The notes beneath the pieces are model-generated. The model did not search any database, had not been told where the DNA came from, and saw nothing but the letters and a program-made list of their open reading frames with translations. The position numbers were made by a program, and so were the translations under genes. Source: Terrabacter sp. Root85 (GTDB taxonomy: Bacteria > Actinomycetota > Actinomycetes > Actinomycetales > Dermatophilaceae). From it: DNA of 64,000 nt. Positions 42,124 to 55,648 of the stretch are shown here, piece by piece. Each line of letters begins with the position of its first letter. The stretch's first letter is position 1. Where the stretch lies: assembly GCF_001429185.1 (NCBI RefSeq), contig NZ_LMIW01000001.1:582439-646438 (forward strand), written 5' to 3'.

Positions 42124-42768
42124 TCACTGGGGGTGGAGCAGGTAGACCGCGGTCTCGAGCAGCAAGGCCACGGTGCGCGACAGCGACGGAGCGCAGAGGT
42201 AGCCGGCATCGAGGTCCACCCGGCGCGGGACGACGTGCTCCAGGTACCACGTCTCGGGGTCCGGGGCGGGCGCGGAGGAGACCGCGGCGAGCGGTGGCTC
42301 GAGCACCCGTGAGTCGCGCATCCTGATCTGCGCCGGTCCAGTCAGTCCCGGTGTGGCCTCGAGCACCCAGCGGCACCCGGACGGGTAGCGGCGCGCCAAC
42401 GCGACCGTCTCGGGCCTGGGGCCGACGAGGGTCATCTCGCCGCGAAGGACGTTGAGCAGCTGCGGCAGCTCGTCGAGCGAGGTGCGCCGGAGCAGGGCCC
42501 CGACCCTCGTGACGCGAGGGTCGCGCCCCATCGTGATGTCGAGACCCTCGCCACCCGAGGTCATGGTGCGCAGCTTGAGGATGGTGAAGGGGCGTCCGCC
42601 CGCGCCGACCCGCTCCTGGCGGAACAGCACGGGCCCCGGGCTCGTCGTGCGGATCGCGACCGCCGCCGCCACGACGACCGGCGCGCTCAGCACGAGGGCC
42701 ACCGCGGCGACCACGACGTCAAGTGCCCGACGAGCGCGGCTGACCCGAGTGGATTCCGTCGTGCTCAG
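42124..42768 (-). CDS. sugar transferase (Bac_transf / polyprenyl-phosphate hexose-1-phosphate transferase, small type)
   Basis: Bac_transf signature (RALDVVVAAVALVLSAPVVVAAAVAIRTTSPGPVLFRQERVGAGGRPFTILKLRTM...DELPQLLNVLRGEMTLVGPRP). Start ambiguous: CTG overlapping the upstream stop, or a GTG 18 codons in. The 566-aa listed ORF is a two-gene read-through artefact. Confidence 0.65.
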   Translation of the reverse strand: MSTTESTRVSRARRALDVVVAAVALVLSAPVVVAAAVAIRTTSPGPVLFRQERVGAGGRPFTILKLRTMTSGGEGLDITMGRDPRVTRVGALLRRTSLDELPQLLNVLRGEMTLVGPRPETVALARRYPSGCRWVLEATPGLTGPAQIRMRDSRVLEPPLAAVSSAPAPDPETWYLEHVVPRRVDLDAGYLCAPSLSRTVALLLETAVYLLHPQ

Positions 42769-43775
42769 CCGGTCCCGGCCGCGACGAAGACGACGTCGAA
42801 CTGGCTCGTCACCGCGCGGACGTCGTGTCCCCGGTCCACCACGTAGGCCGACGGCGTCATGTGTGTCCACAGCCGCGCTCCCTTCTTCCGCCTCTGCTCC
42901 AGCGCCCTGGTCAGCGCGTTCGGGACGTCCCCCGGGTCGACGAGGGTGACGAGCTGGCCGCGGTAGTGCTGCGCCCAGGTCCAGATGTCGACCGCTCTCG
43001 CCCCCTCGGCGAGGGGGATGTCCACGTAGGTGTGCACGTCGGCCTCGGCGCGCGCGACGTCGCCGGGATACGCCCCGGGGTGAGCCAGTGCCTTGCGCGC
43101 CTGGAGGGTCACCCGGGTGCCCCACCGGCGTACGGCCTCGCGCCAGCTCTGCTGCATCGCGTCGTCGCGGGAGCTGCCCTGGGAGGCGTACCAGGCATCG
43201 TCCTGCAGACCCGGGCTGAGGTCGATGACGTCCACCCCGGAGGCGGCGTAGCCGTCGACCGCGGCGAGGCTCGCTCCGGGGCTCGTGCTCGCGGAGCCGG
43301 CACCGCACATGCGCATGACCGCCGTGGACGAGGCGGTCCACGACAGGCAGCCCAGCTCGGGGACGACCACGTCGATGAGCACCTTCGTGCCGGGCGAGGA
43401 GGCGTGGATGTCGGCGACGGTGCGCCTCAGCATGTCCGCCGCCTGTTCCGGGGTCGTGCCGTCGTGGTAGCCGAGCTCGTCGGCGACCTTGATGCCGGCC
43501 ACCCCTCGGCGGCGCGCGAGAGCGAGGGCGGTGCCGAGAACCTGGCGGTAACGGGTCGGTCCTGCGAGGTAGGCCTTGACGACGTCGGACTCGACCCAGA
43601 CGCCGGTCCCCGTCGCGCTGAGGTCGTCGACGAGCTCGGCGTACCGTCCGTCCGTCGGCGTCTGGGTGCCGAGGACGCTCGCCGCCCGTGGGGTCGCGCT
43701 CGGGGCCGGCGCACCGCAGCCGCCGGCGAGAAGGGCCGACGCCGCGACGACCGAGGCCAGCACGCGCCTGGTCAT
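42765..43775 (-). CDS. lipoprotein of unknown function (possible polysaccharide-processing protein)
   Basis: ATG at 43775 (MTRRVLASVVAASALLAGGCG, signal peptide plus lipobox). 336 aa. ATGA overlap with the flippase stop. Confidence 0.55.
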   Translation of the reverse strand: MTRRVLASVVAASALLAGGCGAPAPSATPRAASVLGTQTPTDGRYAELVDDLSATGTGVWVESDVVKAYLAGPTRYRQVLGTALALARRRGVAGIKVADELGYHDGTTPEQAADMLRRTVADIHASSPGTKVLIDVVVPELGCLSWTASSTAVMRMCGAGSASTSPGASLAAVDGYAASGVDVIDLSPGLQDDAWYASQGSSRDDAMQQSWREAVRRWGTRVTLQARKALAHPGAYPGDVARAEADVHTYVDIPLAEGARAVDIWTWAQHYRGQLVTLVDPGDVPNALTRALEQRRKKGARLWTHMTPSAYVVDRGHDVRAVTSQFDVVFVAAGTG

Positions 43776-45058
43776 CGCGGGGTGCCTGCCGTGAGCCGTC
43801 GCACGACGAGCACGGTGCTGACATCGGTGACGAGGTAGGCGACGGCGCTGGCCACGGCTGCCCCGGTCACCCCGAACGACGGGATGAGGGCGAGGTCGAG
43901 TCCGAGTGTCGCGAGCAGGCCGACGGCCTGCAGCACCGAACCGGTGCCGGGACGCCGGGTCCCCAGCAGGTAGCCGCCGGCCAGGCCCCCCGCGGGTGAG
44001 GCGCAGAGGCCGACGGCGATGATGGCGGCCGGCACGACGGACGCGACGAACTCCTGACCGTAGAGGGCCGGCAGCAGGGGTCCCGCGGCGAGCGCCAGCA
44101 CGACGGCACCGACGATGCCCACGCCACCGAGCCACGGCAGCTGTCGACGCACGACCGTCGCGGAGGCCTCCGGCCCGAGGCGGGCGATCCGCGGATAGCT
44201 GACCCAGGTCACCGCGAGCGACGGCAGCCTGACGAGCTCGGCGAACTTCGAGGCCACGGCATACACGCCCAGCGGTGCCGGACCGGCGATGGAGCCCAGG
44301 ACGAGGAAGTCCAGGCGCAGGTTGAGCAGGTTGACCAGGCCGCCGACCTGACCGAGCAGGCCGAACGACACGATGCTGCGGCCGAGCGGGCGGTCGGGAC
44401 GCCCGGTCATCCGCATCCCCCGGCCGTGCACCTGGCGCACGAGACGGGCCCACCCCGCCCCGGCGACGACGACGTCGGCGACGATGAGCACGACGACGAG
44501 CAGCAGGGGCCCGCGCAGTCCGAGCAGCCAGGCGACACCGAAGGCGGGGAGGAAGGCTGCTTCCTCCCCGGCAGTGACCGCGTTGGACCCCTTCCGGTCG
44601 TCGAGCCCCTGGAGGCTCGACTTGGCGACGGCGAGCGGCAGCTGGGTCGCGACACTGACGCCGGCGAGGAGCATGACCAGCGGGCTCGCCGTCGGGAGCA
44701 GGACCGCATGGATGACGGGAACGAGCAGCAGCCACACCGCGGTGCCGATCCCCATGCCGGCGCCGAGCAGCACGAGGATCGTGGGCCACAGCCGCGGGTG
44801 CCCGGCGTGGGGGCCGGCGAGGAAGTAGCCCATCGCACCCGGCAGACCACAGGCGGCGAGGACGCCGACCAGACCCGGCAGGACGCGCAGCAGGGCGAGG
44901 ACCCCGACGTCCTCGGCGCCTCCGACCCGCGCGACGAGGATCGTGCCGATCCCGAGCGCGACCACGGCGACGAGCCGGGCGCCGAGGTTGTCGAGGACGG
45001 CCCGCCCCGGGATGCGGAGGCGACGGGAGGCGTGGCTCGGGTTGAGACGCACCGACAC
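43772..45058 (-). CDS. Wzx-like polysaccharide/oligosaccharide flippase (MOP superfamily)
   Basis: GTG at 45058 with GGGGAGG 7 nt upstream. About 12-14 TM helices, of the 'polysaccharide biosynthesis protein' type. Confidence 0.6.
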   Translation of the reverse strand: MSVRLNPSHASRRLRIPGRAVLDNLGARLVAVVALGIGTILVARVGGAEDVGVLALLRVLPGLVGVLAACGLPGAMGYFLAGPHAGHPRLWPTILVLLGAGMGIGTAVWLLLVPVIHAVLLPTASPLVMLLAGVSVATQLPLAVAKSSLQGLDDRKGSNAVTAGEEAAFLPAFGVAWLLGLRGPLLLVVVLIVADVVVAGAGWARLVRQVHGRGMRMTGRPDRPLGRSIVSFGLLGQVGGLVNLLNLRLDFLVLGSIAGPAPLGVYAVASKFAELVRLPSLAVTWVSYPRIARLGPEASATVVRRQLPWLGGVGIVGAVVLALAAGPLLPALYGQEFVASVVPAAIIAVGLCASPAGGLAGGYLLGTRRPGTGSVLQAVGLLATLGLDLALIPSFGVTGAAVASAVAYLVTDVSTVLVVRRLTAGTPR

Positions 45059-45059
45059 G

Positions 45060-46451
45060 TCATCGCCTCCCCGGAACGGAGGCGGGCAGGACCTCCGGAG
45101 CCGGTCGCCGCGACACGGCCACATCGGCGAGGATCAGGTCGAGACCGGCGACGAGGCCCAGGACCGCCCACAGGTGCCGGAAGTGCAGCACCTCGTAGAA
45201 GAGGCCCGACATGAGGAACGCCGCGCCGAGGGCGGCGAGGAAGTGCGGCGACGGGACGAGCCGCGTCACCGGCCCCGGGTCGCCGCTGCGTCCCCGACCT
45301 CCCTCGGCCACGCCACGTCCCCGGCGTCCCGCGACGCGCGCCAGCCGTGCCGCCACGGACGCGAGCAGGACGACGAGGCCGACGCCTCCGATGAGGCCGA
45401 GCTCGACGAGCGTCGCCACGTAGTCGTTGTGCGCCTCCTTGACGTAGGGAGCAGGGATCGACGCCAGGGCCTCCTTCGTCCGCCCGGGACCGACACCGAC
45501 CAGGGTCCCGTCCCAGAAGAGCCGGACGCCTTCGGAGAAGAGGACCTGCCGGTCCTGGCTCGACGAGTCCCCCCGACCGAACGAGTCGTGCAGGACCGGA
45601 CCACCGGCGGCGGCGCTCGCCTGCACCGACCCCCAGTCGACCGAGGTGACGACCAACCCGGCGGCCGCCGCCAGGACGCACGCGAGCCCGGTCGCGGCGA
45701 TGGCACCATGCGACCGCCATGACCCGACGACGACCCCGACGCCGAGGCCCACCAGCATGCCGAGCATGGCGCCGTTCGACCCGGTGAGGACGGTCGCGAC
45801 GACGAGGAGGAGCACGGTCGCAGCGCGCGCGAGGCGGCGGCGCGGGTGTCGCGAGGCGAGGACGACGAACAGGCAGGCGACGAAGTAGTTGCCGGCGAGG
45901 TTGGGGTCGCCGAAGGTCAGGGCGGACCGCGAGCCGTCCCGGGTGGTCTGGCCGGCGAGCCACGGGATCCCGGCGAGGCGACCGGCCACCAGCAGGCCGG
46001 CGCTGACGATCCCGCTCCAGCACCACGTGACGCACACGAGTCGGACGAGGGAGTGGTCGGCACGCACGGCGTTGGCGATGGTGGCGGCCCAGAGCAGGAG
46101 GAACAGGTCCTGTCCGAGGACCGTCGTCGAGAGGAGGTCCCGGCTGGCGAGCGCGGCGACGGCACCGGCCAGGACCAGGAGCCACATGCCTGCGGCGTAC
46201 GGCACGTGGAGGCGTACGCCGTTGCTCGACAGCCAGAGGAGCACCCCACCCATCGCGAGGAGGATGGGCAGGTCCGCAGGTGAGGTGTTGCCGGGACCGG
46301 TGGGCGTGAGGACCGGCATGCACGCGATGGCTGCGGCGATGAGGAGGCGCACGGACCGTGACGCCGGCACCACGGTCCGGCGCGCCGGCAGCGGTGCGGA
46401 CGCAGCGGCCCGTCCTGTCGTCGTGGGCGCAGCGGCCGCCGTCGTCGTCAC
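45060..46451 (-). CDS. O-antigen ligase / Wzy-like polymerase family membrane protein
   Basis: Wzy_C-type signature (EAHNDYVATLVELGLIGGVGLVVLL) within a polytopic membrane protein. GTG at 46451 with GGAGG upstream, in a GTGA overlap with the upstream stop. Confidence 0.65.
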   Translation of the reverse strand: MTTTAAAAPTTTGRAAASAPLPARRTVVPASRSVRLLIAAAIACMPVLTPTGPGNTSPADLPILLAMGGVLLWLSSNGVRLHVPYAAGMWLLVLAGAVAALASRDLLSTTVLGQDLFLLLWAATIANAVRADHSLVRLVCVTWCWSGIVSAGLLVAGRLAGIPWLAGQTTRDGSRSALTFGDPNLAGNYFVACLFVVLASRHPRRRLARAATVLLLVVATVLTGSNGAMLGMLVGLGVGVVVGSWRSHGAIAATGLACVLAAAAGLVVTSVDWGSVQASAAAGGPVLHDSFGRGDSSSQDRQVLFSEGVRLFWDGTLVGVGPGRTKEALASIPAPYVKEAHNDYVATLVELGLIGGVGLVVLLASVAARLARVAGRRGRGVAEGGRGRSGDPGPVTRLVPSPHFLAALGAAFLMSGLFYEVLHFRHLWAVLGLVAGLDLILADVAVSRRPAPEVLPASVPGRR

Positions 46452-47449
46452 GACCCCACCTCCGCGAGGAGGGACGCGTGGGCGCGGGCGAACGGCGGTG
46501 AGTCGCTCGTCGTCGCCACCTCGCCGAGACCCACGAGCACGGCGTCCCGCCAGGCCGTGGTGCTCGGGTCGCGCCCGAGCGCGGGCGCGATGAAGTCGGC
46601 CACACCGGCGGCATACCACCCCTCGCCCCTCAGCAGATGCCGCACGGGGTCACCCCATGCACCCGCGCGGAGGCCCGCGTGCCCGTGGACCCGGGCACCG
46701 CTCGGGGTGTGCCGGTCGAGGTAGAGCGTGTAGGCGAGGGCGAAACGCACGCGGTCCCACAGTGGGGATCCACCGAAGCGAGCGTGCTCCCAGTCGACGA
46801 CGCCGGTGACCCGACGACCCGTCCGCAGGAGGTTGCCGCACCAGAAGTCGCCGTGGGTGACGTGACCCGTGTCGAGGTCGCCCACCCGAGCCCTGGCGCG
46901 CCGGCACGCCTGCGCCGCCGCCATCCCGGCCTCGTCCGGCCAGCGGCTCTCGAGCGCAGCGGCGCCGTCGACCTCCGGCTGCGGCGGGACCGTGAGGCCG
47001 TGCAGCTGGGAGAGCCACCCGGCCGCCGCGTCGAAGTCGGCCCGCACGTCACGGCGACGGCCCGTGTGGTGCCAGCGGTGGTAGTCGACCGAGAACGGAC
47101 GACCCGACGAGACCGTCGTGACGAGGAACGTGCCGGCCACGGTCTCGTGCAGGGCGAGCAGGCGGGGGACCGTCCCGCCGACGAGACCGGGGTCGAGCTG
47201 CCCCAGCTGATCGAGTGCGGCGGCCTCGGCACGGACCGACCGGGCGGCCCCACCGGTCAGGGCCACCTTCACCGCGAGGACCGGCGTCGTCGCACCGGAG
47301 GGTGTCGCCATGACGACCGCCTTGGGATGGTCGTCCCGCGACATGGCCACGACCGCGAGCCGGACCGTCCGGTCGTCCAGGTGCCGCCGCAGGACGTCCT
47401 CGACGGCCCCGAGGTCGGGGAACGCCGTCTGCCTCGTCGACGTGGTCAT
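46448..47449 (-). CDS. phosphotransferase enzyme family protein (APH/choline-kinase-like kinase fold)
   Basis: ATG at 47449 (MTTSTRQTAFPDL...). Catalytic motif HGDFWCGNLL...VVDWEHARFG (HGDxxxxN...D). ATGA overlap with the upstream stop. Confidence 0.65.
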   Translation of the reverse strand: MTTSTRQTAFPDLGAVEDVLRRHLDDRTVRLAVVAMSRDDHPKAVVMATPSGATTPVLAVKVALTGGAARSVRAEAAALDQLGQLDPGLVGGTVPRLLALHETVAGTFLVTTVSSGRPFSVDYHRWHHTGRRRDVRADFDAAAGWLSQLHGLTVPPQPEVDGAAALESRWPDEAGMAAAQACRRARARVGDLDTGHVTHGDFWCGNLLRTGRRVTGVVDWEHARFGGSPLWDRVRFALAYTLYLDRHTPSGARVHGHAGLRAGAWGDPVRHLLRGEGWYAAGVADFIAPALGRDPSTTAWRDAVLVGLGEVATTSDSPPFARAHASLLAEVGS

Positions 47450-47868
47450 GGTCGGTGGACGATGACCATGCGCCCGGCCACGAGCGGACCGACCCAGCGG
47501 ACGAGGTGGCGGTTCCGGCCGAGGCACGTCGTGGCCGTGATGAGCAGGGATCCGCGGGACCGCCCCGGGGGGACGGTCGCGAAGGCGTTCCAGAACCACG
47601 TCAGGCTCTCGACCGAGTCCTCGACGACGAAGGCTGCCGTCCTCAGGCCCGGCAGCACGACGAGCTCACGGTCGACGACGAGGCCGGCGTCCCGTGCGAG
47701 ACGTGTCAGGCGCCTGGCGCTGAGCCGCCGCCCGTCGAGGAGGACGAGCCGCTTCGCCGACGACACTCCCGCGATCGCCGCCGCCGAGCCCCGTCGGGAG
47801 CCGCGGACCTCGACCACCGGCGTGCCACCCGGCACGAGCAGGGCCAGCGCGGCCTCGAGGGCGCTCAC
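47446..47868 (-). CDS. hypothetical protein (140 aa)
   Basis: GTG at 47868 with GGGGAGGG upstream, in a GTGA overlap with the GT4 stop. No recognisable family. The listed ORF 47446..48681 has a long antisense-like extension. Confidence 0.4.
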   Translation of the reverse strand: MSALEAALALLVPGGTPVVEVRGSRRGSAAAIAGVSSAKRLVLLDGRRLSARRLTRLARDAGLVVDRELVVLPGLRTAAFVVEDSVESLTWFWNAFATVPPGRSRGSLLITATTCLGRNRHLVRWVGPLVAGRMVIVHRP

Positions 47869-49040
47869 GACGCCCTCCCCCACCCGGGCACCGACGTCAG
47901 CAGCGGCCGGCGGACCTCGGGGTCGCCGGTGTAGACCTCCTGCAGGGTCGCGCCCAGGGTGCTCGCGTCGTAGCGGGTGCCGAGCTGGGCCCTGGCCCGC
48001 TCCGCCCAGGCAGCGGCCTGTCTCGGGTGGGTGAGTGCGTGGTCGAGCGCCCGGGCCAGCTGGTCCGGGTCCTGGGGCGCCACGAGCAGACCGGTCACTC
48101 CGGGGACCACGACGTCGGAGACCGCGTTCACCGACGTCGCGACCACGGGTATGCCGCACGCCTGGGCTTCGACGATGGCGCACGGCAAGCCCTCGTAGCG
48201 GCTCGACATGGCGAAGACGTCGAACGCCGGCAGCAGCTCGGCCACGTCCGTGCGGTGACCGAGCAGCAGCACGCGACGTTCGAGGCCCGACGCCTGCGCT
48301 CGACGGGCGGTCTCCTCCAGGAGGGGACCGCCACCGACCCAGACGAGCACGGCCGGCGTCGCCATCCGGGCCAACGCCTCGAGCATGACCTCCGGCGCCT
48401 TCTGGAAGTCCATCCGTCCGACCGTGCCGACGACCGTCGCGTCGGCGGGCAGCCCGAGCAGCGCCCGCGCGCGCAAGCGTGACGCCGGCGACGCGGTGAC
48501 CGACGCGGGCTCGACCGCCGGACCGATCGTGACGAGCTGCTCGGGGCGGACCACCTTCCGCCGCAGCGCCTCGACCGCGACGCCGGTGCCGATGGCGAGA
48601 TAGGCGTCCGTGACGTGCGAGAGCTCGCGCTCGGTACGGATGTAGGCGTGCCGCACGGCAGCGGACTGGAAGTCGTGCCAAGGGAATCCGTGCAAGGTGT
48701 GCACGATGCGGGGCACGCCTGCTCTCGAGGCCGCCACGCGTCCCAGGACGCCCGCCTTGGCGCTGTGGGTGTGCACGACGTCGAAGCCCTCGGCCCTGAG
48801 CAGCCGCGAGATCGACCGGAAGGCCCTGGCGTCCTGGGCCGGGTTGATCGGTGAGACGAGCTCCGGCACGACGACCACGTCGACGCCGCTCGAGCGGGCG
48901 ACGTCGAGGAGAGCGTCACCCGAGCCGACGACGAGAGTGCTCGCGTACAGCTCTCGGGGCAGGCTCACCGCCCCGCGCACGGCGACCCCGCCGGCCCCGG
49001 CGACGCACCGGGTGATGATGTGCGCGACACGCTGCGTCAT
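47865..49040 (-). CDS. glycosyltransferase family 4 (GT-B fold)
   Basis: ATG at 49040 (MTQRVAHIITR...). C-terminal GT4 motif (EGLPCAIVEAQACGIPVVATSVNAVSDVV). ATGA overlap with the upstream stop. Confidence 0.8.
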   Translation of the reverse strand: MTQRVAHIITRCVAGAGGVAVRGAVSLPRELYASTLVVGSGDALLDVARSSGVDVVVVPELVSPINPAQDARAFRSISRLLRAEGFDVVHTHSAKAGVLGRVAASRAGVPRIVHTLHGFPWHDFQSAAVRHAYIRTERELSHVTDAYLAIGTGVAVEALRRKVVRPEQLVTIGPAVEPASVTASPASRLRARALLGLPADATVVGTVGRMDFQKAPEVMLEALARMATPAVLVWVGGGPLLEETARRAQASGLERRVLLLGHRTDVAELLPAFDVFAMSSRYEGLPCAIVEAQACGIPVVATSVNAVSDVVVPGVTGLLVAPQDPDQLARALDHALTHPRQAAAWAERARAQLGTRYDASTLGATLQEVYTGDPEVRRPLLTSVPGWGRAS

Positions 49041-50095
49041 GCCCGCGCTCCTGTCATCCCCGGGTTCGTCGCTCGCCCGGCTCGCGCGGCCTGCTCGGCG
49101 CGGTCGACGAGCTCGACGAGGGACGTCCCCGGACGTGCCGGGAGGACGACCTCGACGCAGTGGAGGGACCGGGCGAGGCGCTCCGACTCGCCCACGATCG
49201 ACGGATGCGCCGGGCCGAGGCCGGTGCCCAGTGCCAGCGTCGCGGCGAAGGCCCAGTACCGGCGCAGCTCGCCCGCGGCGTACGTGCCCGTGGCGAGGGC
49301 TCTCGCGGCGACCACCGGCGGGACCGGCCTCACCGAGGGTCGCGCCCCGGAGCCACGTCGGAGCACGAGGAGCAGGGACGGCGTCATGGCGGGCAGCGTG
49401 CCGTCCCACGGCTGCTCCACCCGGCCGTGGGGCATCGACCGACGGCCGGCCCGGACCGGGCCCGCGTCGACGCGTCGGGGCTCACGCAGCCCGTAGATCA
49501 TCGCCCCGTCGTAGGTGCAGAGGTTGTCGCTGACCGACGCGCCCTGGTCCGGCCCGAGGCCGGCGACGAGCGTCGACTTGCCCACGCCCCCCGGCCCGGC
49601 GAGGAGCACGCCCAGACCTGCGACCTGCGCCGCCGAGACGTGCAGCGGAACGGCTCCCCCGACACCGGCCCACCACAGGGTCGGGTACTGCAGGAGCGCG
49701 GCACGCCAGAGCAGCTCGGTGCGCCCGGGAGCCACGAGGCGCAGGGCGCGGTGGGAGGGCCCCGGGCGGGAGCGTGCCGTCACCGAGACTGCCCTCGGCG
49801 ACGGCTCGACGAGCAGGTCCAGACCGCTCGCGCAGGCGTCGGTGAGCACGACGCGACGGCCGTCTGCGAAGGCACCGCGGGTGAGCGGCGTCAGGCCGTG
49901 CACCTCGAACGGCTCGCGAGAGGACTCCAGCTGCACGACGACATCGGCGTCCCGGCCCGGCTGCGGCACCTCGGCCCGGTGCGGCGCCTCCGCTCGAGGA
50001 GGGTCGCCGAGGGCGCGGTCGATGACCTGCGACCAGCCGCGTGGCACCGACCGGACCTCCAGGGTCAGGCCGCAGGACTTGGCGCGCCGGCTCAC
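49037..50095 (-). CDS. HprK-like / P-loop (Walker A) putative kinase
   Basis: GTG at 50095 with GGAGG 5 nt upstream, overlapping the Wzz-like stop (GTGA). Walker A LLAGPGGVGKSTLVAGL embedded in an HPr-kinase-C-domain-like context. Family assignment tentative. Confidence 0.5.
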   Translation of the reverse strand: MSRRAKSCGLTLEVRSVPRGWSQVIDRALGDPPRAEAPHRAEVPQPGRDADVVVQLESSREPFEVHGLTPLTRGAFADGRRVVLTDACASGLDLLVEPSPRAVSVTARSRPGPSHRALRLVAPGRTELLWRAALLQYPTLWWAGVGGAVPLHVSAAQVAGLGVLLAGPGGVGKSTLVAGLGPDQGASVSDNLCTYDGAMIYGLREPRRVDAGPVRAGRRSMPHGRVEQPWDGTLPAMTPSLLLVLRRGSGARPSVRPVPPVVAARALATGTYAAGELRRYWAFAATLALGTGLGPAHPSIVGESERLARSLHCVEVVLPARPGTSLVELVDRAEQAARAGRATNPGMTGARA

Positions 50096-51444
50096 GGCAT
50101 CCTCCACATCTTGTGGCTGCTCAGGGCCCCGTGGTCGACGCGACGTGGCTCGGGGACGCCGTCGGCCGGATCCACCGGGATCTCGGGGGTGACCTCCGTG
50201 AGGGGGGTGATGGGGGGACGGTGGACCCGGCCACCCTCCGCGAGCGTCTGCCGGTCGATGAGCCACCGGCGCCGGAAGGTGAGCACGCCGACGACGGGCC
50301 AGTCCATCACCGCGGCGGTGCGGGCCAGCTCCTCGAGGCGGCGCTGCGCCTCGACGGTCGGGCTGAGCACGATCACGACGGGGTCGGCAGGGCGACCGAC
50401 GTCCTCGGCCGGCCGCGCGACCGTCGCGTCGGGGGCGTGGTCGACATGCAGGCCGGTGAGCGCCTCGAGCTCGGCGCAGACGCGCGCAGCCCACCGGTCG
50501 TGCTTCCTCTCGACCGGGAGCAGCAGCAACGGCCGCCCGGTGAACCGGGCGGCGAGCACGGCTGCAGCACCGCCGAACTCACGCAGGGCGCGGGCACCCC
50601 GTGGTCCCCCGAGGTCGAGCGTGGGCAGGTGCCCGAGGAGCGGGGCGTGCAGCTCGGCCGCCACCCACCGACGGCCCCGGACCCGGGGGTGGAGTGCCTC
50701 GAGGATCGCCACGAGGCCCAGCGCGAGGATCAGCGCGGCCAGACCCGCCAGAGCCACGAGCTGGCCGACCTTTGGGCCGACCGGATCAGAGGACGCCGTC
50801 GCGGGATCGAGCAAGCCGATGCTCGATCGCTCCGACGCCGCCAGGACGAGGTCGGAGCGCTGCCGCAGCAGGTCCGTGAGGGTCGGCGCGTCCGCCGCGA
50901 TCCGCGCCTGCAGCTCGAGTACCGCGCCCGGGGCAGCCGCCGCCAGCTGGTGGATCAGGCCGTCTCGCTCCTTCGTGAAGCGGCTGATCTGGTGGTCGAG
51001 AGCGGTCATCTTCACGGCGTCGCTCTGGTGAGCGGTGTTGGCGTACTTGAGAGCCTGCTGGACGAGCGAGTTCGCGACGATGACCGAACGGTCCGCGTTG
51101 CCCGTGGTGACGAGGACGTCGTTGACCGTGGAGACGCCCACTCGGTTCACGACGATCGAGTGGGTGGCGAAGGGAGTCGGGTCGCCCTCGAGCCCAGCTG
51201 CAGCCATGGCGTGACGCACCGTGTTGGGGGTCGTGATCACACCCTGGAGCCACTGTGTCGCAGCGTCCGCCTGGACATTGGTGCTGGCGAGACCACCGGA
51301 CATCTGGACCCGCGCCGAGGCCTGGTACTGCAGGTCCTGGTTGGTGGCGTAGACGCCCGCCGCCAATGACGCCACCAGGACCAGCAACCCGATCAGCCAC
51401 CAGTAACCACCGATCATGCGGCGGAAGGCTTCATCGATGCGCAT
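50092..51444 (-). CDS. Wzz-like polysaccharide co-polymerase (chain-length determinant family) with a non-kinase C-terminal domain
   Basis: N-terminal TM helix (WWLIGLLVLVASLAAGVYA), a periplasmic helical region, a second TM helix (LVALAGLAALILALGLVAILEAL), then a 170-aa cytoplasmic domain with no Walker A. Confidence 0.6.
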   Translation of the reverse strand: MRIDEAFRRMIGGYWWLIGLLVLVASLAAGVYATNQDLQYQASARVQMSGGLASTNVQADAATQWLQGVITTPNTVRHAMAAAGLEGDPTPFATHSIVVNRVGVSTVNDVLVTTGNADRSVIVANSLVQQALKYANTAHQSDAVKMTALDHQISRFTKERDGLIHQLAAAAPGAVLELQARIAADAPTLTDLLRQRSDLVLAASERSSIGLLDPATASSDPVGPKVGQLVALAGLAALILALGLVAILEALHPRVRGRRWVAAELHAPLLGHLPTLDLGGPRGARALREFGGAAAVLAARFTGRPLLLLPVERKHDRWAARVCAELEALTGLHVDHAPDATVARPAEDVGRPADPVVIVLSPTVEAQRRLEELARTAAVMDWPVVGVLTFRRRWLIDRQTLAEGGRVHRPPITPLTEVTPEIPVDPADGVPEPRRVDHGALSSHKMWRMP

Positions 51445-51472: not shown

Positions 51473-52936
51473 TCAGTGCAGGACGGCGAACGGCCGCATC
51501 CGCGCCACCGGGCGGATGATCCGGTGCGAGGACAGGACCGACATCGCCGCGTTGACGCCGGCGTCGTCGAGGTGCGCCGTCTCGCTCGGAGCGGTGTCGT
51601 CGTAGCGGAACCGGAGCGTGGAGCGCCCCGCGGGATCGGGCTGGGAGGCCCCGCTCGTCGCGAACTGGTCGATGACGGTGCCCGCCCCGTGGCAGGCGGA
51701 GTGGAGGCTCTGGCCGCTGGACGGGCCGGCGACCGCGAGGTACGACGACGTCCGGTGCGTCCCGGGCAGCAGGACCGCCTGACCCGTCTGCGCGAAGGTG
51801 GTCCCGGGCACCATGAGGTGCGCCGGGTAGGCGCGGCACGAGTTGTGGCGGTGCACGACGGCACGTTCGCCGGCGACGTCCTCCTCGTAGATCGAGTTGT
51901 GGGGCGAGTCGACGACGAGCCTGCCCGGGGCGCCGCCGAAGGCGTCCGCCGCCAGCTGCCGGAGTGCCTGGTAGGTCGCCATGCGGAAGGCGAAGCCGTA
52001 GTTCATCGCCGCCGCGTTGGCGAGCATGAGCCGCTTCCCCTCGTCCGAGTCGAGACCGACCGGCGGGCACGCCGAGCTGAAGAAGAGGCGCATCCGCTCG
52101 CGGACCTGCTGGGTGGATCGCGCCGTGGCGAGGTGGAACAACGGCTTCTGGACCGCCATCGCCGCCCTCATGACGCGGGCGGTGTCACGCCGGCGGGCGA
52201 ACAGGTGACCGATCTCGCCCGTCAGCACGCCGCCGCCGGCGTGGTACTGCAGCGTCACCTGGCCCTCGTGGACGCCGAGCTGCCGGGCGGCGACCGGGTC
52301 GAGGATCTCCTCGACCACCTGCAGCTCGACGAAGTGGTTCGTCGGACCCACGGTGCCGAAGCGGAGCCGGGCCAGCTGCCACGTGAGCGCGGGGACCTCG
52401 GCGACGAGACGCTCGCTGCCGCCCCACGCCGCGAGGTCGATCCGGCCGCTCTCCTCCACCCGCTCGAGCTCGGCGGGGTCGACCCCGTTCCGCTCGACGG
52501 CGAAGCCGGCGCCCTCGGTGGCGGCGGCGACCACGTCCCGATACGACAGGTCGCGCCGGTTGGTCGTGGGATAGGGGTAGCGCTCGCGCACCCGGCGGTA
52601 GAAGTCGCTGACGGCGGCATCGCTCGGTCGGTCGCAGCCCAGGGCGATGAGCGCCATGCCGCAGTTGACCGAGGAGCTCGTCAGCGTCGGTCGGATCGTC
52701 CCTGCCGTCGCCACGGCGATGCTCGAGGGCATCTCCATGGCCGACTTGTGGTGGAAGTCGGGAAGCACGACCGGTGGCGCCACGAGGTCCATCCCGAGCG
52801 TGGCGGAGTTCAGCGACGCGACGAGGTCTCGGTCCGCCGGGACGCGGTCGCTGTCGAACACGCGTGCCTCGTGGTGGCCTGCCGGCCGGACCGACGTCGG
52901 CTCCGCGGCGCGACCGGCGATGACGGTGATCTTCAT
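51473..52936 (-). CDS. RtcB-family (RNA-splicing ligase-like) protein
   Basis: RtcB hallmark motifs are present: SVNCGMALI (metal-binding Cys), GPTNHFVELQ (the GxxNHFxE motif), VVHRHNSCRA (cf. HRKGA) and ACHGAGTV (cf. the HGAGR nucleotidyl-His motif). 487 aa. Confidence 0.6.
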   Translation of the reverse strand: MKITVIAGRAAEPTSVRPAGHHEARVFDSDRVPADRDLVASLNSATLGMDLVAPPVVLPDFHHKSAMEMPSSIAVATAGTIRPTLTSSSVNCGMALIALGCDRPSDAAVSDFYRRVRERYPYPTTNRRDLSYRDVVAAATEGAGFAVERNGVDPAELERVEESGRIDLAAWGGSERLVAEVPALTWQLARLRFGTVGPTNHFVELQVVEEILDPVAARQLGVHEGQVTLQYHAGGGVLTGEIGHLFARRRDTARVMRAAMAVQKPLFHLATARSTQQVRERMRLFFSSACPPVGLDSDEGKRLMLANAAAMNYGFAFRMATYQALRQLAADAFGGAPGRLVVDSPHNSIYEEDVAGERAVVHRHNSCRAYPAHLMVPGTTFAQTGQAVLLPGTHRTSSYLAVAGPSSGQSLHSACHGAGTVIDQFATSGASQPDPAGRSTLRFRYDDTAPSETAHLDDAGVNAAMSVLSSHRIIRPVARMRPFAVLH

Positions 52937-52970: not shown

Positions 52971-54464
52971 TCAGTAGTCGTCCGGGTACGGGGCGGACGT
53001 CTGGAGGGCGAACACGTCGCCGGGTTCGGGGCGGTAGACCGGCAGCACCGCAGCGAGGGCGCGGCGCACGTCGTCCGCCGCGTTCCGCCGGGCGGCGTCG
53101 TAGAGCGCGAGCATCAGGGCGTCGAAGTGCTCGTGCACGGGGACGGCCTGCGCGCCGAAGATGCGTGGATGACTCGTGGGGAGGCATTCCTCGTCGTCGC
53201 TGAACAGCGACTCGTGGAGCTTCTCCCCGGGACGGAGCCCGGTGAACCGGATGTGGACGTCGCGGACGCCGAGCTGCCGTGCGAAGTTGGCCACGAGGTC
53301 GACGATCCGGACGGGTGAGCCCATGTCGAGCACGAACGTCTCCGAGCCGGTCGTCAGGTGCGCGGCCTCGAGCACGAGCCCGACCGCCTCCTCGATCGTC
53401 ATGAAGTACCTCGTGACGTCCGGATGCGTCACGGTCACGTCCCGTCCGGCCGCCATCTGGGCCACGAGCACGGGAAGGAGCGAGCCGCGGCTGCCGAGCA
53501 CGTTGCCGAAGCGTACGGCCGAGACCACGGTGCGGCCCCCCGCGTGCTTCTTGACCACCTGCTCGGCCAGGGCCTTGGTCGCTCCCAGGACGGAGGTCGG
53601 GTCAGCGGCCTTGTCGGTGGAGATGGCGACGAAGCGCTCGACTCCCGCCTCGACCGCGGCGACCAGCACGTTCTCGGTGCCCTGGACGTTCGACTTCACG
53701 CCCTCGCACGGATGCTCCTCGAGCATCGGCAGGTGCTTGAGCGCCGCCGCGTGGAAGACGACCTGCGGCTTGTACTGCCCCATGACCTGCCGCATGCGTT
53801 CGGCGTCGCGGATGTCGGCCACGACGGTGTCGTGCGACTCGAGGAACGCCTCTCCCCGCAGCTCGAGCTGGAGGCGGTGGAGGTTGGACTCGTCGTGGTC
53901 GAGCATGACGAGGCGGTGGGGCACGAAGCCGTTGACCTGGCGGCACAGCTCGCTGCCGATCGAGCCACCGGCCCCGGTCACGAGCACCGTTCTGCCCGTG
54001 ATGATCTCGGCAACCTCCGGTGACGCGACGTGGAGCTCGCAGCGGCCGATCAGGTTGGCGACGTCGAGCGAGCACATGTCCGTGCCCACGACGTCGCGTC
54101 GCAGCAGGGCCACGAAGGACGGCAGCCTGCGGACACTCGCCCCGACGCGGGCGGCGGCGGTGGCCAGCCTCGTCACCTCGGCCTCGGGAAGCCCCGGGAT
54201 CGCGAGGACGACGACGTCGATCCGCTCGGCCGTCGCGACCCGCAGGACGTCGGCCAGCCGGCCGAGCACGGGGAGGTGGCGAACCCGGCGCTTGTCGGGG
54301 TCGTCGTCGAGGAAGCCCACGGGACACAGCCCGAAGTCGTCGACTCGCTGCAGGTCCCGCGCGAGAGCCTTGCCTGCTGCCCCGGCTCCGACGATGAGGG
54401 TCCGGAGGCTGAGTCCCGGACCGGCGCTGCCGAGCCCCGGCAGGGTGACCAGCTGTGACGTCAT
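52971..54464 (-). CDS. polysaccharide biosynthesis protein CapD/PglF-like (membrane-associated NDP-sugar 4,6-dehydratase)
   Basis: N-terminal CoA-binding-like domain. SDR core VLVTGAGGSIGSELCRQ...FHAAALKHLPMLEEHP. 497 aa. Confidence 0.85.
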   Translation of the reverse strand: MTSQLVTLPGLGSAGPGLSLRTLIVGAGAAGKALARDLQRVDDFGLCPVGFLDDDPDKRRVRHLPVLGRLADVLRVATAERIDVVVLAIPGLPEAEVTRLATAAARVGASVRRLPSFVALLRRDVVGTDMCSLDVANLIGRCELHVASPEVAEIITGRTVLVTGAGGSIGSELCRQVNGFVPHRLVMLDHDESNLHRLQLELRGEAFLESHDTVVADIRDAERMRQVMGQYKPQVVFHAAALKHLPMLEEHPCEGVKSNVQGTENVLVAAVEAGVERFVAISTDKAADPTSVLGATKALAEQVVKKHAGGRTVVSAVRFGNVLGSRGSLLPVLVAQMAAGRDVTVTHPDVTRYFMTIEEAVGLVLEAAHLTTGSETFVLDMGSPVRIVDLVANFARQLGVRDVHIRFTGLRPGEKLHESLFSDDEECLPTSHPRIFGAQAVPVHEHFDALMLALYDAARRNAADDVRRALAAVLPVYRPEPGDVFALQTSAPYPDDY

Positions 54465-55648
54465 CGCGTGCCCCCGATCCGCCAGAGCGCCGCACAGACC
54501 TCGTCGACGTCGTCATCGGTGAGGTTCTGGTCGAAGGGCAGCGACAGGGTGGTGGCGAAGACGGCGTCGGCGCCGGGAAGCCCGCCGGCAGGCACGACGC
54601 AGTGCTCGACGTGCCACGTCAGCCGGTGCAGGGGGATGAAGTGCACCGAGGTCCCGATGCCCTGGTCGTTGAGCCGGTCGATGAGCTCGTCGCGGGCGAC
54701 CGGGAAGCCTGAGTGGACCCGCACCGCGTAGAGGTGCCAGGCGTGTCGGCCCTCGACCGGGCGCGGCGGCAGGCTGACCCAGGGGAGGCTGCTGAGCTGC
54801 GCGTCGTAGCGCGCCGCCACCTCGCGACGGCGTGCCTGGTCGGTGTCGAACCGGCGCAGCTGCGCACGACCGATCGCTGCCTGGACGTCCGTGAGGTTCG
54901 CCTTGAGGCCGTCGTCGGCCACGTCGTAGCGCCAGCTCGCCCCGGGCGAGTAGCGGCGCCAGGCGTCGCGGGACATCCCGTGCAGCCGGGTGCGGGCCAT
55001 GACCTCGGCGAAGTCCTCGTCGAGGGTCGTCACCATGCCGCCCTCCCCGATCGCCAGGTTCTTCGTGGCGTAGAAGCTGAAGCAGGTCGCGCGGGAGATC
55101 GACCCGACCGGTCGCGTCCCGACGCACGTGCCGAGCGCGTGCGCGGCGTCCTCGATGACGTGGTCGAGTCCGATCCCGGCTGCCGCGGCGGCGGCCTCCA
55201 CGTCGACCGGGTTGCCGCCGAGGTGCATGACGACCATGGCCGACACGCCACCGACGTCGCGCACGGCAGCGCGGATGTGCTCCTCGGCCGGGACGGCCGT
55301 CCAGGGGTCGACATCGACGAGGACCGGCACGAGGCCGGCATGGGTGATGGCTCCGGCTGCGCCGCAGAACGTGTTCGTCGACATCAGCACGCGCGACCCA
55401 CGGGCCAGACCCAGGCCCCGCAGAGCGAGCTCCAGTCCCGCGGTGCATGAGCTGACCGCGACGCCCCGGGCGGCACCGACGTGGTCGGCGAACTCTCGCT
55501 CGAAGTCGGCGACCTGCTGCCCCGTCGTCACCCACCCCGACTCGAGGACCTGGGCGACGGCGGAGCGGGCATCGGGACCGATCACCGTGCGCGCGAAGGG
55601 AATCGAGCGAGCCGCGGCCACTCGTGGTGCGGATGTGTGGACCGTCAT
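54461..55648 (-). CDS. DegT/DnrJ/EryC1/StrS family aminotransferase (sugar aminotransferase)
   Basis: ATG at 55648. PLP-Lys region (SFYATKNLAIGEGGM). 395 aa. ATGA overlap with the CapD start. Confidence 0.85.
   Translation of the reverse strand: MTVHTSAPRVAAARSIPFARTVIGPDARSAVAQVLESGWVTTGQQVADFEREFADHVGAARGVAVSSCTAGLELALRGLGLARGSRVLMSTNTFCGAAGAITHAGLVPVLVDVDPWTAVPAEEHIRAAVRDVGGVSAMVVMHLGGNPVDVEAAAAAAGIGLDHVIEDAAHALGTCVGTRPVGSISRATCFSFYATKNLAIGEGGMVTTLDEDFAEVMARTRLHGMSRDAWRRYSPGASWRYDVADDGLKANLTDVQAAIGRAQLRRFDTDQARRREVAARYDAQLSSLPWVSLPPRPVEGRHAWHLYAVRVHSGFPVARDELIDRLNDQGIGTSVHFIPLHRLTWHVEHCVVPAGGLPGADAVFATTLSLPFDQNLTDDDVDEVCAALWRIGGTR

Follow-up and report, generated by a model that had tools for sequence, protein, structure and literature searches.

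A conserved, apparently uncharacterized Wzx/Wzy-type glycan cassette with APH-fold, HprK-like and RtcB-like genes in Terrabacter sp. Root85

In the 64,000-nucleotide stretch of Terrabacter sp. Root85 DNA analyzed here (the window), a run of minus-strand genes encoding an HprK-like P-loop protein, a GT4 glycosyltransferase, a 140-residue protein (u140) and an APH-fold phosphotransferase forms the variable core of a conserved, apparently uncharacterized Wzx/Wzy-type cell-surface glycan cassette. The cassette comprises 10-13 genes and is present in at least 80 species across phyla, and our literature search found no paper describing it. From gene context and protein folds, we tentatively favor, as a serious possibility rather than a probability, membrane-associated cytoplasmic phosphorylation of a lipid-linked repeat unit combined with nucleotidyl activation or ligation by an RtcB-like protein.

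Gene content and operon structure

The cassette genes are listed in their order in the window, from DegT to Bac_transf, followed by the remaining features.

54461-55621, minus strand: DegT/PglE-like aminotransferase (PF01041, 1.8e-99)
52971-54464, minus strand: CapD/PglF-like NDP-sugar 4,6-dehydratase (Polysacc_synt_2, 1.7e-101)
51473-52936, minus strand: divergent RtcB-like nucleotidyl-transferase/ligase, 487 aa (PF01139, 4.2e-47)
50092-51444, minus strand: Wzz-like chain-length protein (weak GNVR and Wzz matches)
49037-50095, minus strand: HprK/PEPCK-fold P-loop protein (ScmC-family relative), 352 aa; GTG start, GGAGG ribosome-binding site
47865-49040, minus strand: GT4 glycosyltransferase, 391 aa (Pfam Glyco_trans_1_4, 2.4e-34; Glycos_transf_1, 4.8e-34; Glyco_transf_4, 3.2e-15)
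47446-47868, minus strand: u140, 140 aa, truncated class-I methyltransferase-like alpha/beta module, APH-kinase partner
46448-47449, minus strand: APH-fold (protein-kinase-like) phosphotransferase, 333 aa (PF01636, 44.2 bits, cutoff 23.2)
45060-46451, minus strand: Wzy_C (O-antigen ligase/polymerase-like) membrane protein (PF04932, 1.6e-15)
43772-45073, minus strand: Wzx-type flippase (Polysacc_synt, 6.7e-9)
42765-43709, minus strand: lipoprotein with a signal/lipobox-like N-terminus and no recognizable family in a Pfam search; cassette member in some loci
42124-42900 (start codon approximate), minus strand: small phosphoglycosyl transferase (Bac_transf, PglC-like; PF02397, 2.3e-49)
40455-42080, plus strand: metallo-beta-lactamase-fold plus Rieske protein (Rieske, Lactamase_B_3, weak SCP2_Rv3818); cassette member in some loci
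55741-57795, minus strand: two LuxR-type response regulators and a histidine-kinase ATPase fragment, beside the cassette

The same regulators also border the cassette in loci L081, L083 and L084. All genes and features of the first-pass annotation are present at their coordinates, and the four consecutive genes from HprK-like to APH carry a clear coding signal (GC3 0.85-0.96 by codon-position GC). The 140-residue frame had been placed between the two kinase-like genes; more precisely, it lies between GT4 and APH and does not directly adjoin both. Four-nucleotide NTGA start/stop overlaps occur at all five junctions from Wzz to Wzy (Wzz/HprK, HprK/GT4, GT4/u140, u140/APH and APH/Wzy), the Wzy GTG start overlapping the APH stop codon, and the HprK-like, GT4, u140 and APH genes are translationally coupled. 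Since a simple hydropathy scan found no hydrophobic transmembrane stretches in the P-loop protein, the APH protein or u140, all three are probably cytoplasmic.

Conservation of the cassette in other genomes

Co-occurrence was counted in 58 loci with full flanks and adjacency in 80 related loci; because these 80 were the loci most closely related to the query, the co-occurrence counts do not extend to the wider ScmC family. The RtcB-like gene accompanies the HprK-like gene in 58/58 loci, with GT4 present in 57, Wzy in 55, Wzx in 54, APH in 51, the lipoprotein in 31 and the metallo-beta-lactamase/Rieske protein in 28. Two reverse look-ups from RtcB-like homologues reach the same cassette. GT4 adjoins the HprK-like gene in 71/80 loci, and the commonest local order is HprK-GT4-RtcB or GT4-HprK-RtcB. 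The u140 gene, found in 46/58 loci, never occurs without APH. In cassettes lacking APH the sole kinase-like candidate is the HprK-like protein, and in those checked (e.g., L034, L045, L047 and L062) its gene is directly followed by the RtcB-like gene.

Identity to Terracoccus sp. 273MFTsu3.1 is 94-96% in the flanks but 72-82% in the block made up of Wzx, Wzy, APH, u140, GT4, the HprK-like gene and the 3' half of Wzz. Therefore, the kinase-like genes vary together with the structure-specific genes.

The APH-fold kinase and its partner u140

The assignment of an APH-fold phosphotransferase is borne out by a Pfam score well above cutoff and by alignment, in which every catalytic residue is kept: of 61 sequences, 95% or more share K61, E75, H199-G-D201, N206 and D219. 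The catalytic loop HGDFWCGN (Brenner motif; 46832-46855, minus strand) is invariant in the family alignment (A3), and translation places the metal-binding Asp219 at 46793-46795. A PDB search with the family profile hit the macrolide, capreomycin, viomycin, hygromycin and APH(3') kinases as well as fructosamine kinase, and gave weak matches to choline kinase (E 0.03) and maltokinase. The protein is predicted to be a catalytically intact small-molecule/sugar-type kinase. It resembles known PF01636 kinases, such as macrolide 2'-phosphotransferase, the capreomycin, viomycin and hygromycin kinases and fructosamine-3-kinase (profile matches at E 1e-7 to 4e-4), in keeping the Lys, Glu, HGDxxxxN and Asp. 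Unlike them, it has an additional conserved region on its C-terminal side (YLDRH...GH...W), is obligatorily accompanied by or fused to a methyltransferase-like domain, sits in a Wzx/Wzy operon rather than an antibiotic-resistance setting, and is fused in places to membrane proteins of the operon.

That u140 lacks a recognizable family holds for Pfam and NCBIfam, but it is a genuine, conserved family (27 close homologues; 193 representative clusters), and its predicted model, of moderate confidence (pLDDT 72), has a partial class-I methyltransferase-like fold. Its sequence always lies ahead of the APH kinase, either as a separate gene or, in several homologues, as part of one fused protein, and u140 behaves as an N-terminal, methyltransferase-like accessory module of the kinase. 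In WbdD, too, the kinase is preceded by a methyltransferase domain on its N-terminal side, although u140 lacks the SAM-binding half. WaaP/WaaY, KdkA and WbdD are alike in concept, the cassette enzyme being protein-kinase-like, encoded beside GT4 and expected to phosphorylate a glycan intermediate, but they serve LPS core or ABC-transporter pathways rather than a Wzx/Wzy pathway, and these kinase families gave no sequence match in Pfam, NCBIfam or PDB searches.

Phosphorylation before transfer, compared in the first-pass annotation to LicA-type phosphocholine or Kdo-kinase-type decoration, is reasonable from context as a glycan-linked step, but neither comparison is supported. Kdo-kinase and WaaP families give no match. 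In a LicA-type route, choline or a similar small substituent would first be phosphorylated, then activated with a nucleotide and finally passed to the glycan, steps that call for a cytidylyltransferase and a LicD-type transferase. The intact APH/choline-kinase fold and the weak choline kinase match would suit it; however, a LicC-like cytidylyltransferase, a LicD-like transferase and a choline transporter are all missing from the cassette, and without LicC/LicD-type genes the reading is unsupported. In addition, the Pfam Choline_kinase family does not match the APH protein, which is structurally closest to antibiotic and sugar kinases, and fusions link the kinase to a phosphoglycosyl transferase. 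We consider this route very unlikely.

The HprK-like protein

The Walker A motif GPGGVGKST (residues 167-175; 49571-49597, minus strand, by translation check) and the HGDxxxxN...D motif of the APH protein were confirmed and are not chance matches, given the residue conservation in alignments of 81 and 61 sequences, respectively. By sequence alone, known families match the P-loop protein only at the P-loop region and always below threshold, as might be expected of a degenerate ABC/AAA ATPase fragment or of chance motifs in GC-rich sequence. We regard this as scarcely credible given the strong GC3 signal, more than 1100 homologues and about 45 positions, spread over the full length, that 95% or more of the sequences share; such full-length conservation refutes it.

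The protein has an HprK/PEPCK fold and is placed near the ScmC family. It scores below every sequence threshold for HprK/P (PF07475), of the PEP carboxykinase superfamily, yet its H152, K173, S174 and D190 are spaced identically to the His, Walker A Lys-Ser and next acidic motif of that family; its N-terminal domain aligns with PEPCK (233 residues), not HprK/P (about 150). Residues H152, G167, G170, G172, D190, N191, E205, R208 and R225 are invariant in 81 sequences, whereas position 173 holds Lys in 70 sequences, Arg in 10 and Thr in 1, with one clade having Arg or Thr there. D190-N191 (49523-49528, minus strand; 81/81 sequences) aligns without gaps to Asp178-Asp179 of HprK/P in the HMMER match to 1jb1, with the same spacing (His-to-Lys 21, Lys-to-Asp179 18). 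The protein therefore has an invariant Asn at the position of Asp179, the proton acceptor of HprK/P (PMC9399212). This Asn and the Arg/Thr clade argue against classical kinase catalysis, and the Asn, with Arg at the Walker Lys in one clade, makes kinase activity uncertain. The label of a kinase-like trio is only partly right: APH is intact in its catalytic residues, but u140 is methyltransferase-like rather than kinase-like, and the HprK-like protein shows on alignment the kind of catalytic-residue loss that the first-pass annotation named as grounds for refutation.

Close homologues are annotated as ScmC (SynChlorMet cassette protein C; PF27840), and TIGR04249 is the best NCBIfam match, although it scores only 19 bits where the cutoff is 125. 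The setting of HprK/P is sugar-transport regulation, that of the cassette protein a glycan operon; as in ScmC and the lasso-peptide HPr-kinase homologues, the fold is put to biosynthetic rather than regulatory use. Those homologues phosphorylate the C-terminal Ser of lasso-peptide precursors, and a nucleotidyltransferase then elaborates the phosphate installed on the hydroxyl, as in pseudomycoidin (PMC8498205). There the partner enzyme is of pol-beta type, whereas in the cassette it is RtcB-like. The annotation and this precedent could suggest a peptide or protein, e.g., a RiPP-like one or a glycoprotein, as substrate of the kinase-like proteins, and Wzy_C domains occur in O-oligosaccharyltransferases too. 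However, the cassette lacks radical-SAM/SPASM, PqqD, lasso and precursor-peptide genes and all conserved neighbors are glycan-assembly genes, so that we find this reading extremely unlikely.

The Wzz-like protein and gene fusions

The Wzz-like protein has two transmembrane segments (residues 10-35 and 224-253) and a cytoplasmic C-terminal domain of about 200 aa with no match in a PDB search. In L038, L046 and L049, Wzz-like and HprK-like sequences form one in-frame ORF, with the transmembrane segments upstream and the P-loop domain C-terminal. Further fusions join Wzx to Bac_transf (11 loci), Bac_transf to u140-APH, and NTP_transf_5 to u140-APH; some in-frame fusions stem from long-read MAGs, in which indel errors are possible.

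The main rival to our favored reading makes the HprK-like protein a cytoplasmic P-loop partner of the Wzz-like protein, a functional analogue of a BY-kinase or pseudokinase rather than a glycan kinase, that would regulate polymerization or export via protein phosphorylation or nucleotide-dependent conformational change, with only u140 and APH modifying the glycan. We rate it unlikely but deserving of weight. The single ORFs have the PCP-2a architecture, and fused and split versions across lineages recall PCP-2a/2b systems (Wzc; CapA/CapB), in which a two-transmembrane PCP precedes or is fused to a cytoplasmic P-loop protein. Moreover, the Wzz and HprK-like genes overlap in the window, Wzz lies directly upstream in 35/80 loci, the cassette has no BY-kinase gene, and the Asn at the catalytic-base site and the Lys-to-Arg clade resemble pseudokinase drift. 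To our knowledge, no characterized HprK-family substrate is a sugar. Those described are proteins or peptides (PMC9399212, PMC8498205), and a BY pseudokinase in EPS synthesis is reported (PMC12004946). On the other hand, the Wzc/CapB P-loop domain has the MinD/BY-kinase fold, no conserved Ser/Thr/Tyr cluster was identified, and no fold relative could be detected for the cytoplasmic domain of Wzz. Wzz adjacency is also not universal, the gene lying 4-5 kb off in the majority of the distant loci, whereas the constant neighbors are GT4 and the RtcB-like gene, whose 58/58 link this rival leaves unexplained.

The RtcB-like protein

The RtcB-like gene, the most informative neighbor, lies outside the span covered by the first-pass annotation (46448-50095). 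Its product matches PF01139 at 162 bits and P. horikoshii RtcB at 111 bits. Aligned to the latter, a 3'-phosphate/5'-OH RNA ligase, it keeps the nucleophile (His404, here H416), metal ligands C92, H201, H232 and H346, the M1 ligands and Cys bridge, and the equivalents of His203, Asn202, Asn330 and Glu206. Of the six metal ligands five are retained, as is the Glu that contacts guanine (residue roles, PMC9745838). However, the M2 ligand Asp95 is replaced by Ser or Ala in 70/70 cassette sequences, and motifs HRKGA and GAGR become HRHN and GAG(T/S). Because Asp95 is absent, even nucleotidylation is no more than putative. Unlike RtcB RNA ligase, the homologue always lies within a polysaccharide operon, and it showed no RtcA, archease or RNA-repair partners. 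We know of RtcB enzymes acting on nucleic-acid ends only.

One alternative is precursor activation, in which a kinase would make a sugar-1-phosphate, the RtcB-like protein would convert it by His-NMP transfer to an NDP-sugar, and the adjacent GT4 would use this donor. NMP transfer to a phosphate is the same chemistry as the known 3'-phosphate capping step of RtcB. The most frequent local order places the three genes together, the cassette lacks a conventional sugar-1-phosphate nucleotidyltransferase, and APH-fold anomeric sugar kinases exist, maltokinase being among the weak matches. Against it, we know of no precedent for RtcB on sugar phosphates, free-sugar salvage is unusual in surface-glycan loci, and a soluble pathway leaves the kinase-Bac_transf and HprK-Wzz fusions unexplained. 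The RNA 3'pp5'G intermediate of RtcB (PMC9745838) also speaks for precursor activation, which we nevertheless judge decidedly unlikely.

Proposed mechanism and implications

In the favored reading of lipid-linked phosphorylation, u140 and APH, working at the cytoplasmic membrane face, would phosphorylate a hydroxyl group on a sugar of the repeat unit while it is linked to undecaprenyl diphosphate. The HprK-like protein, in the same membrane-associated complex beside GT4 and the chain-length protein, would either perform a second phosphorylation or bind a phosphate or pyrophosphate group. The RtcB-like enzyme might then activate the resulting phosphomonoester by histidine-NMP chemistry and either link it to a hydroxyl, so that the decoration is attached through a phosphodiester, or leave an NDP-type linkage, after which Wzx would flip the completed unit, Wzy polymerize it and Wzz set its length.

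The intact APH catalytic set and profile matches to kinases acting on sugar hydroxyls are consistent with the first step, and the fusions Bac_transf-u140-APH, Wzz-HprK and Wzx-Bac_transf support a membrane, lipid-linked context. By analogy, the NTP_transf_5-u140-APH fusion and the lasso-peptide precedent (PMC8498205) may reflect a kinase-plus-nucleotidyltransferase logic. Co-inheritance, the five 4-nt overlaps, the RtcB-like His nucleophile, the APH-less cassettes and the Terracoccus divergence pattern lend further support. Counting against this reading are the invariant Asn and the Arg/Thr clade of the HprK-like protein, the protein or peptide nature of the HprK-family substrates known to us, and the restriction of known RtcB enzymes to nucleic-acid ends, together with the loss of Asp95. 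Overall, the cassette hints at an undescribed route for adding phosphate-linked groups to a glycan.

Gene Organization of the Locus

The four genes considered here lie in an unbroken minus-strand run, evident from position-specific GC content in a window of ~72–75% GC, and their starts were set from start-codon inspection together with the N-termini of homologues. A chance or non-coding origin was rejected on the basis of the GC3 signal and conservation. The coordinates and motifs in the first-pass annotation, which had described a kinase-like trio flanking a GT4 gene, were confirmed.

Features of the locus (window positions, strand, description)
38483-39958, plus: right-handed beta-helix (NosD/Pel9A-like) protein, beside the cassette
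40455-42080, plus: metallo-beta-lactamase-fold and Rieske [2Fe-2S] protein (MBL-Rieske), weak Rv3818-like SCP2 domain match, convergent with the operon
42765-43709, minus: lipoprotein, ~314 aa, lipobox-like LLAGGCG, no Pfam family
46448-47449, minus: APH-fold protein (APH), 333 aa
46832-46855, minus: HGDFWCGN of APH, with Asp219 at 46793-46795
47446-47868, minus: u140, 140 aa
47865-49040, minus: GT4 glycosyltransferase, 391 aa
49037-50095, minus: P-loop (HprK-like) protein, 352 aa, GTG start, GGAGG upstream
49571-49597, minus: Walker A GPGGVGKST of the HprK-like protein
50092-50700, minus: cytoplasmic domain (C-terminal ~200 aa) of the Wzz-like protein, no Pfam match
51473-52936, minus: RtcB homologue inside the polysaccharide operon, named RNA-splicing ligase in public records
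55741-57795, minus: two LuxR-type response regulators and a histidine-kinase ATPase domain, directly upstream of DegT

Five consecutive 4-nt NTGA start/stop overlaps connect the upstream Wzz-like gene, the four genes and the downstream Wzy gene, so that Wzz-like to Wzy forms one translationally coupled unit. According to family scans, the minus-strand order begins with a histidine kinase and two LuxR response regulators, a DegT aminotransferase, a CapD/PglF-like dehydratase and the RtcB homologue, and continues with Wzz-like, HprK-like, GT4, u140, APH, Wzy_C, Wzx, the family-less lipoprotein and Bac_transf; the MBL-Rieske gene is on the opposite strand. The same scans of the cassette genes identified no conventional nucleotidyltransferase besides the RtcB homologue.

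Several neighboring genes recur elsewhere. Comparable regulators lie beside the cassette in three loci of other genomes (L081, L083, L084), which suggests dedicated two-component control, and the lipoprotein is kept mostly in loci that also carry u140 and the MBL-Rieske gene. The beta-helix protein, which may degrade the polymer as a lyase or hydrolase, also adjoins the cassette in Dactylosporangium (L083:1495-2829). L083 additionally has an LCP (LytR_cpsA_psr) gene bordering the cassette, a hint of a wall-anchored polymer.

Distribution and Variation of the Cassette

One genome per species was scanned, and the best 80 of 200 loci with HprK-like relatives were compared by tblastn with all window proteins; the same cassette was found throughout these 80 loci. 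Its hosts include Intrasporangiaceae, Streptomyces, Amycolatopsis, Nonomuraea, Streptosporangiaceae and Acidimicrobiia, the soil Actinomycetota Dactylosporangium, Terrabacter and Terracoccus, and MAGs labelled Dormibacterota, Chloroflexota, Gemmatimonadota and others. Among the 58 of the 80 loci with at least 7 kb upstream and at least 9 kb downstream, the RtcB-like gene is present in all 58, followed by GT4 (57), CapD and Wzy (55 each), Wzx (54), DegT (53), APH (51), Wzz (49), u140 (46, and in none without APH), Bac_transf (44), the lipoprotein (31) and MBL-Rieske (28). GT4 adjoins the HprK-like gene in 71 of the 80. Two reverse look-ups, one begun with an RtcB-like homologue of Dactylosporangium fulvum and the other with one from a Nanopelagicales MAG, both reached the same cassette. 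Overall, its presence in many soil Actinomycetota and in MAGs of other phyla suggests that it probably makes a common, undescribed envelope polymer.

Compared with the locus of Terracoccus sp. 273MFTsu3.1 (L003), the flanks (MBL-Rieske, Bac_transf, RtcB-like, CapD, DegT and the regulators) show 94–96% DNA identity, while a ~7.7-kb block (window ~43100-50900) is only 72–82% identical. This block comprises the lipoprotein 3′ end, Wzx, Wzy, APH, u140, GT4, the HprK-like gene and the Wzz 3′ half. The mosaic has the form expected of a polysaccharide locus whose serotype-specific centre is swapped or diversifying, and it groups the kinase-like genes with the structure-specific components.

u140 and APH as a Two-Piece Kinase

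APH matches PF01636 at 44.2 bits, above the gathering threshold of 23.2. The first-pass annotation had allowed that the kinase fold might lack catalytic residues; however, the beta3 Lys, alphaC Glu, HxDxxxxN loop and metal-binding Asp are all present, and the set K61, E75, H199, D201, N206 and D219 is invariant in alignment A3 and conserved in at least 95% of 61 sequences. Family profile matches (E 1e-7 to 4e-4) are to macrolide 2′-phosphotransferase, capreomycin/viomycin kinases, hygromycin/APH(3′) kinases and fructosamine-3-kinase. APH appears competent to phosphorylate a hydroxyl group on a small molecule or sugar.

A LicA-type phosphocholine route and a Kdo-kinase-type decoration had been named for comparison at first pass. 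There is no Choline_kinase match, the PDB profile match to choline kinase is weak (E 0.03), and no LicC or LicD homologue occurs among the cassette genes; with these partner genes missing, the LicA-type pathway was rejected, and we regard it as very improbable. The Kdo-kinase comparison likewise fails, as Pfam, NCBIfam and PDB gave no Kdo or WaaP/WaaY match at E up to 1. Kinship with WbdD, WaaP or KdkA was also rejected, none of these being matched by the APH profile.

The 140-aa protein matches no Pfam or NCBIfam family, as was noted at first pass, but it does belong to a real family with 27 close homologues and, in an exhaustive profile search, 193 representative clusters. Its conserved motifs are VVDRELxVxP, FVVED and FATVPPG; within its 140 residues there is no GxGxG (SAM-binding motif I), no full seven-strand core and no methyltransferase Pfam match. 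A broadened profile detected u140 in 58 of the 80 loci, in every case immediately upstream of APH. It is fused to APH in four homologous proteins (P0184, P0229, P0241, P0274) and in ORFs of L041, L051, L055, L067 and L071, to Bac_transf and APH in P0280, and to NTP_transf_5 (PF14907) and APH in P0238, an 883-aa metagenomic representative whose APH part is 38% identical to the window APH (E 1e-51). This co-occurrence and these fusions reduce the trio to an HprK-fold protein and an APH kinase made of two pieces, u140 being one of them. Phosphoglycosylated lasso peptides provide a published precedent for pairing an HPr-kinase homologue with a nucleotidyltransferase (PMC8498205), and the P0238 triple fusion shows the same kinase/nucleotidyltransferase pairing for the APH kinase. 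In the lasso-peptide clusters, PF14907-type nucleotidyltransferases elaborate the phosphate put on by the HPr-kinase homologues.

The HprK-Like P-Loop Protein

The HprK-like protein has the PEPCK-like P-loop fold of the HprK/P C-terminal catalytic domain (HprK/PEPCK fold). It scores below threshold against PF07475 (15.4 bits, threshold 33.3), TIGR00679 (16.1 bits, threshold 240) and TIGR04249, or ScmC (19.4 bits, cutoff 125); other sub-threshold Pfam and NCBIfam matches near Walker A are to AAA, ABC and RsgA, and PDB sequence searches returned generic P-loop matches. PF27840 is precomputed on many homologues at 45–55% identity and on few of the closest. From sequence alone, the protein is unplaceable in a family.

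In HprK/P, His140, Lys161 and Ser162 are active-site residues and Asp179 is the proton acceptor/donor (PMC9399212). The Lactobacillus casei enzyme gives an ungapped HMMER match with the same His-to-Lys (21) and Lys-to-Asp179 (18) spacing, in which H152, K173, S174, D190 and N191 are equivalent to His140, Lys161, Ser162, Asp178 and Asp179. The His, Lys and Ser residues and their spacing are therefore shared with HprK/P, whereas Asp179 is replaced by Asn. Among 81 cassette homologues, H152, D190, N191, E205, R208 and R225 are invariant, so the proton-acceptor position is always Asn; the S174 equivalent is Ser in 80 of 81, and the Walker A Lys (K173) is Lys in 70, Arg in 10 and Thr in one. The Arg and Thr variants form a coherent clade from Streptomyces, Amycolatopsis, Streptacidiphilus and Pseudonocardiaceae (L031, L041, L043, L051, L052, L055, L059, L061, L067, L070, L071). 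In this clade GR(S/T) or GT(S) replaces GK(S/T) and the remaining protein is still conserved; the u140-APH fusions of L041, L051, L055, L067 and L071 fall in these same loci. Kinase activity of the HprK-like protein is possible on these residues but cannot be assumed. The reading as an artefact or ATPase fragment is already refuted, and we give it practically no weight.

A scan of the cassette genes found no ptsH-like gene. The SynChlorMet cassette in which ScmC occurs contains radical SAM/SPASM maturases, a PqqD-like protein and a precursor peptide; by contrast, none of these was found among the cassette genes, including those of L081-L084, and the SynChlorMet context is absent here. We hardly expect the kinase-like proteins to act on a peptide or protein substrate.

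Links to the Membrane Machinery

A simple hydropathy scan found no hydrophobic transmembrane stretch in the HprK-like, u140, APH or RtcB-like proteins, and NTP-dependent chemistry implies a cytoplasmic location for all four. In-frame fusions link the kinase-like proteins to membrane components, namely Bac_transf-u140-APH and Wzz-HprK. The latter is a single ORF of ~800 aa in L038:8582-10996, L046:8600-10999 and L049:8654-11005 (L046 and L049 being short-read MAGs), laid out as TM1, ectodomain, TM2, cytoplasmic domain, linker and HprK-like domain. A cytoplasmic P-loop protein thus follows the PCP with a 4-nt overlap in the window or is fused to it in these three loci, an architecture shared with Wzc-type PCP-kinase fusions but built on a different P-loop fold. 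The MinD-like fold of BY-kinases, with Walker A, A′ and B motifs and a C-terminal Tyr cluster, was not found in the HprK-like protein, which has no such Pfam matches.

The HprK-like protein may regulate the chain-length protein as a BY-kinase-like partner, a reading favored by the Wzz-HprK fusions, by the Asn and Arg substitutions and by the fact that HprK-family substrates are proteins and peptides. However, the constant linkage of its gene to GT4 and RtcB argues against this role, which we consider unlikely but by no means negligible.

Wzx and Bac_transf form one in-frame ORF in 11 loci (L032, L034, L035, L039, L044, L047, L057, L058, L062, L079, L080). Other joint ORFs are Wzy-Wzx (L003, L032, L073), APH-Wzy (L004, L065) and RtcB-u140 (L077), the last two types occurring only in long-read MAGs, where indel errors are possible, and calling for caution. 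The pattern of the Wzz-like cytoplasmic domain (APLLGHLP..., LLLLPVE..., VVIxLSP..., GWPxVGVLTFRR) made us suspect a Walker-less BY-kinase-like remnant, but a PDB profile search for a degenerate BY-kinase domain returned nothing meaningful.

The RtcB-Like Protein

To our knowledge, RtcB-type enzymes have so far been known only for joining nucleic-acid ends. The RtcB-like protein matches PF01139 at 161.8 bits (threshold 27), aligns end to end with Pyrococcus horikoshii RtcB, and is the most strongly conserved cassette protein. The roles of the RtcB residues are established for the His404 nucleophile, the M1 ligands, the bridging Cys, the M2 ligand Asp95 and the guanine-contacting Glu206 (PMC9745838). 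His404 (H416), M1 ligands (H232, H346), the bridging Cys (C92), His203 (H201), Asn202, Asn330 and Glu206 (E204) are kept, with H416, H232, H346 and C92 conserved in 68–70 of 70 sequences. The Asp95 position is Ser in 44 and Ala in 26 of the 70 cassette homologues, in which the motifs HRKGA and GAGR have become HRHN and GAG(T/S). This residue pattern, together with the conservation, suggests that the enzyme is functional and that its substrate site is altered; a role in RNA repair is unlikely for the RtcB gene of these genomes.

Proposed Pathway

In the pathway that we propose, CapD and DegT would make UDP-4-amino-4,6-dideoxy-HexNAc, Bac_transf would load this sugar onto undecaprenyl phosphate, and GT4 would attach a second sugar. 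Phosphorylation of a sugar hydroxyl at the cytoplasmic face would fall to the u140-APH kinase. The HprK-like protein would dock to GT4 and to the Wzz protein, and its task would be either to install or to bind a phosphate or pyrophosphate. Through its His-NMP, the RtcB-like enzyme would convert the phosphomonoester to an activated form and then ligate it to a hydroxyl, or leave it as an NDP-type linkage, before Wzx, Wzy and Wzz complete the polymer. Drawn from fold, conservation, gene order and fusions, the scheme as a whole is tentative, plausible but somewhat short of probable. The kinase, RtcB-like enzyme and GT4 might instead constitute a precursor-activation module yielding an NDP-sugar, which we judge decidedly improbable.

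The routes known so far for putting phosphate-linked groups on glycans draw on a phospholipid or on a donor activated with CDP or UDP. It is a rather doubtful proposition that an RtcB-type enzyme has been recruited, with an HprK/PEPCK-fold protein and an APH kinase, into a widespread Wzx/Wzy cassette that makes phosphate-based linkages (phosphodiester or NDP-type) on a surface glycan via NMP activation of an acceptor-borne phosphomonoester. Each protein can be assigned or likened to a fold family already known, and there is nothing unusual in Wzx/Wzy assembly; it is the combination that we did not find in the searchable literature, which yielded neither a link between RtcB and glycan clusters nor a description of the cassette, and nothing relevant for SynChlorMet/ScmC. 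An Actinoplanes EPS cluster with the kinase-like WpsI is different and sulfotransferase-containing, and RtcB is unmentioned there (PMC13390465).

Even under a conservative reading, the annotation is corrected, the 140-aa "unknown" being a module of the APH kinase. The mosaic divergence that close relatives show in the block with the kinase-like genes suggests that antigens or phage receptors vary from strain to strain. If true, the proposed pathway would represent the first non-nucleic-acid substrate class for RtcB-family enzymes, the first glycan-assembly role for an HprK/PEPCK-fold protein, and new chemistry for decorating glycans through phosphate linkages.
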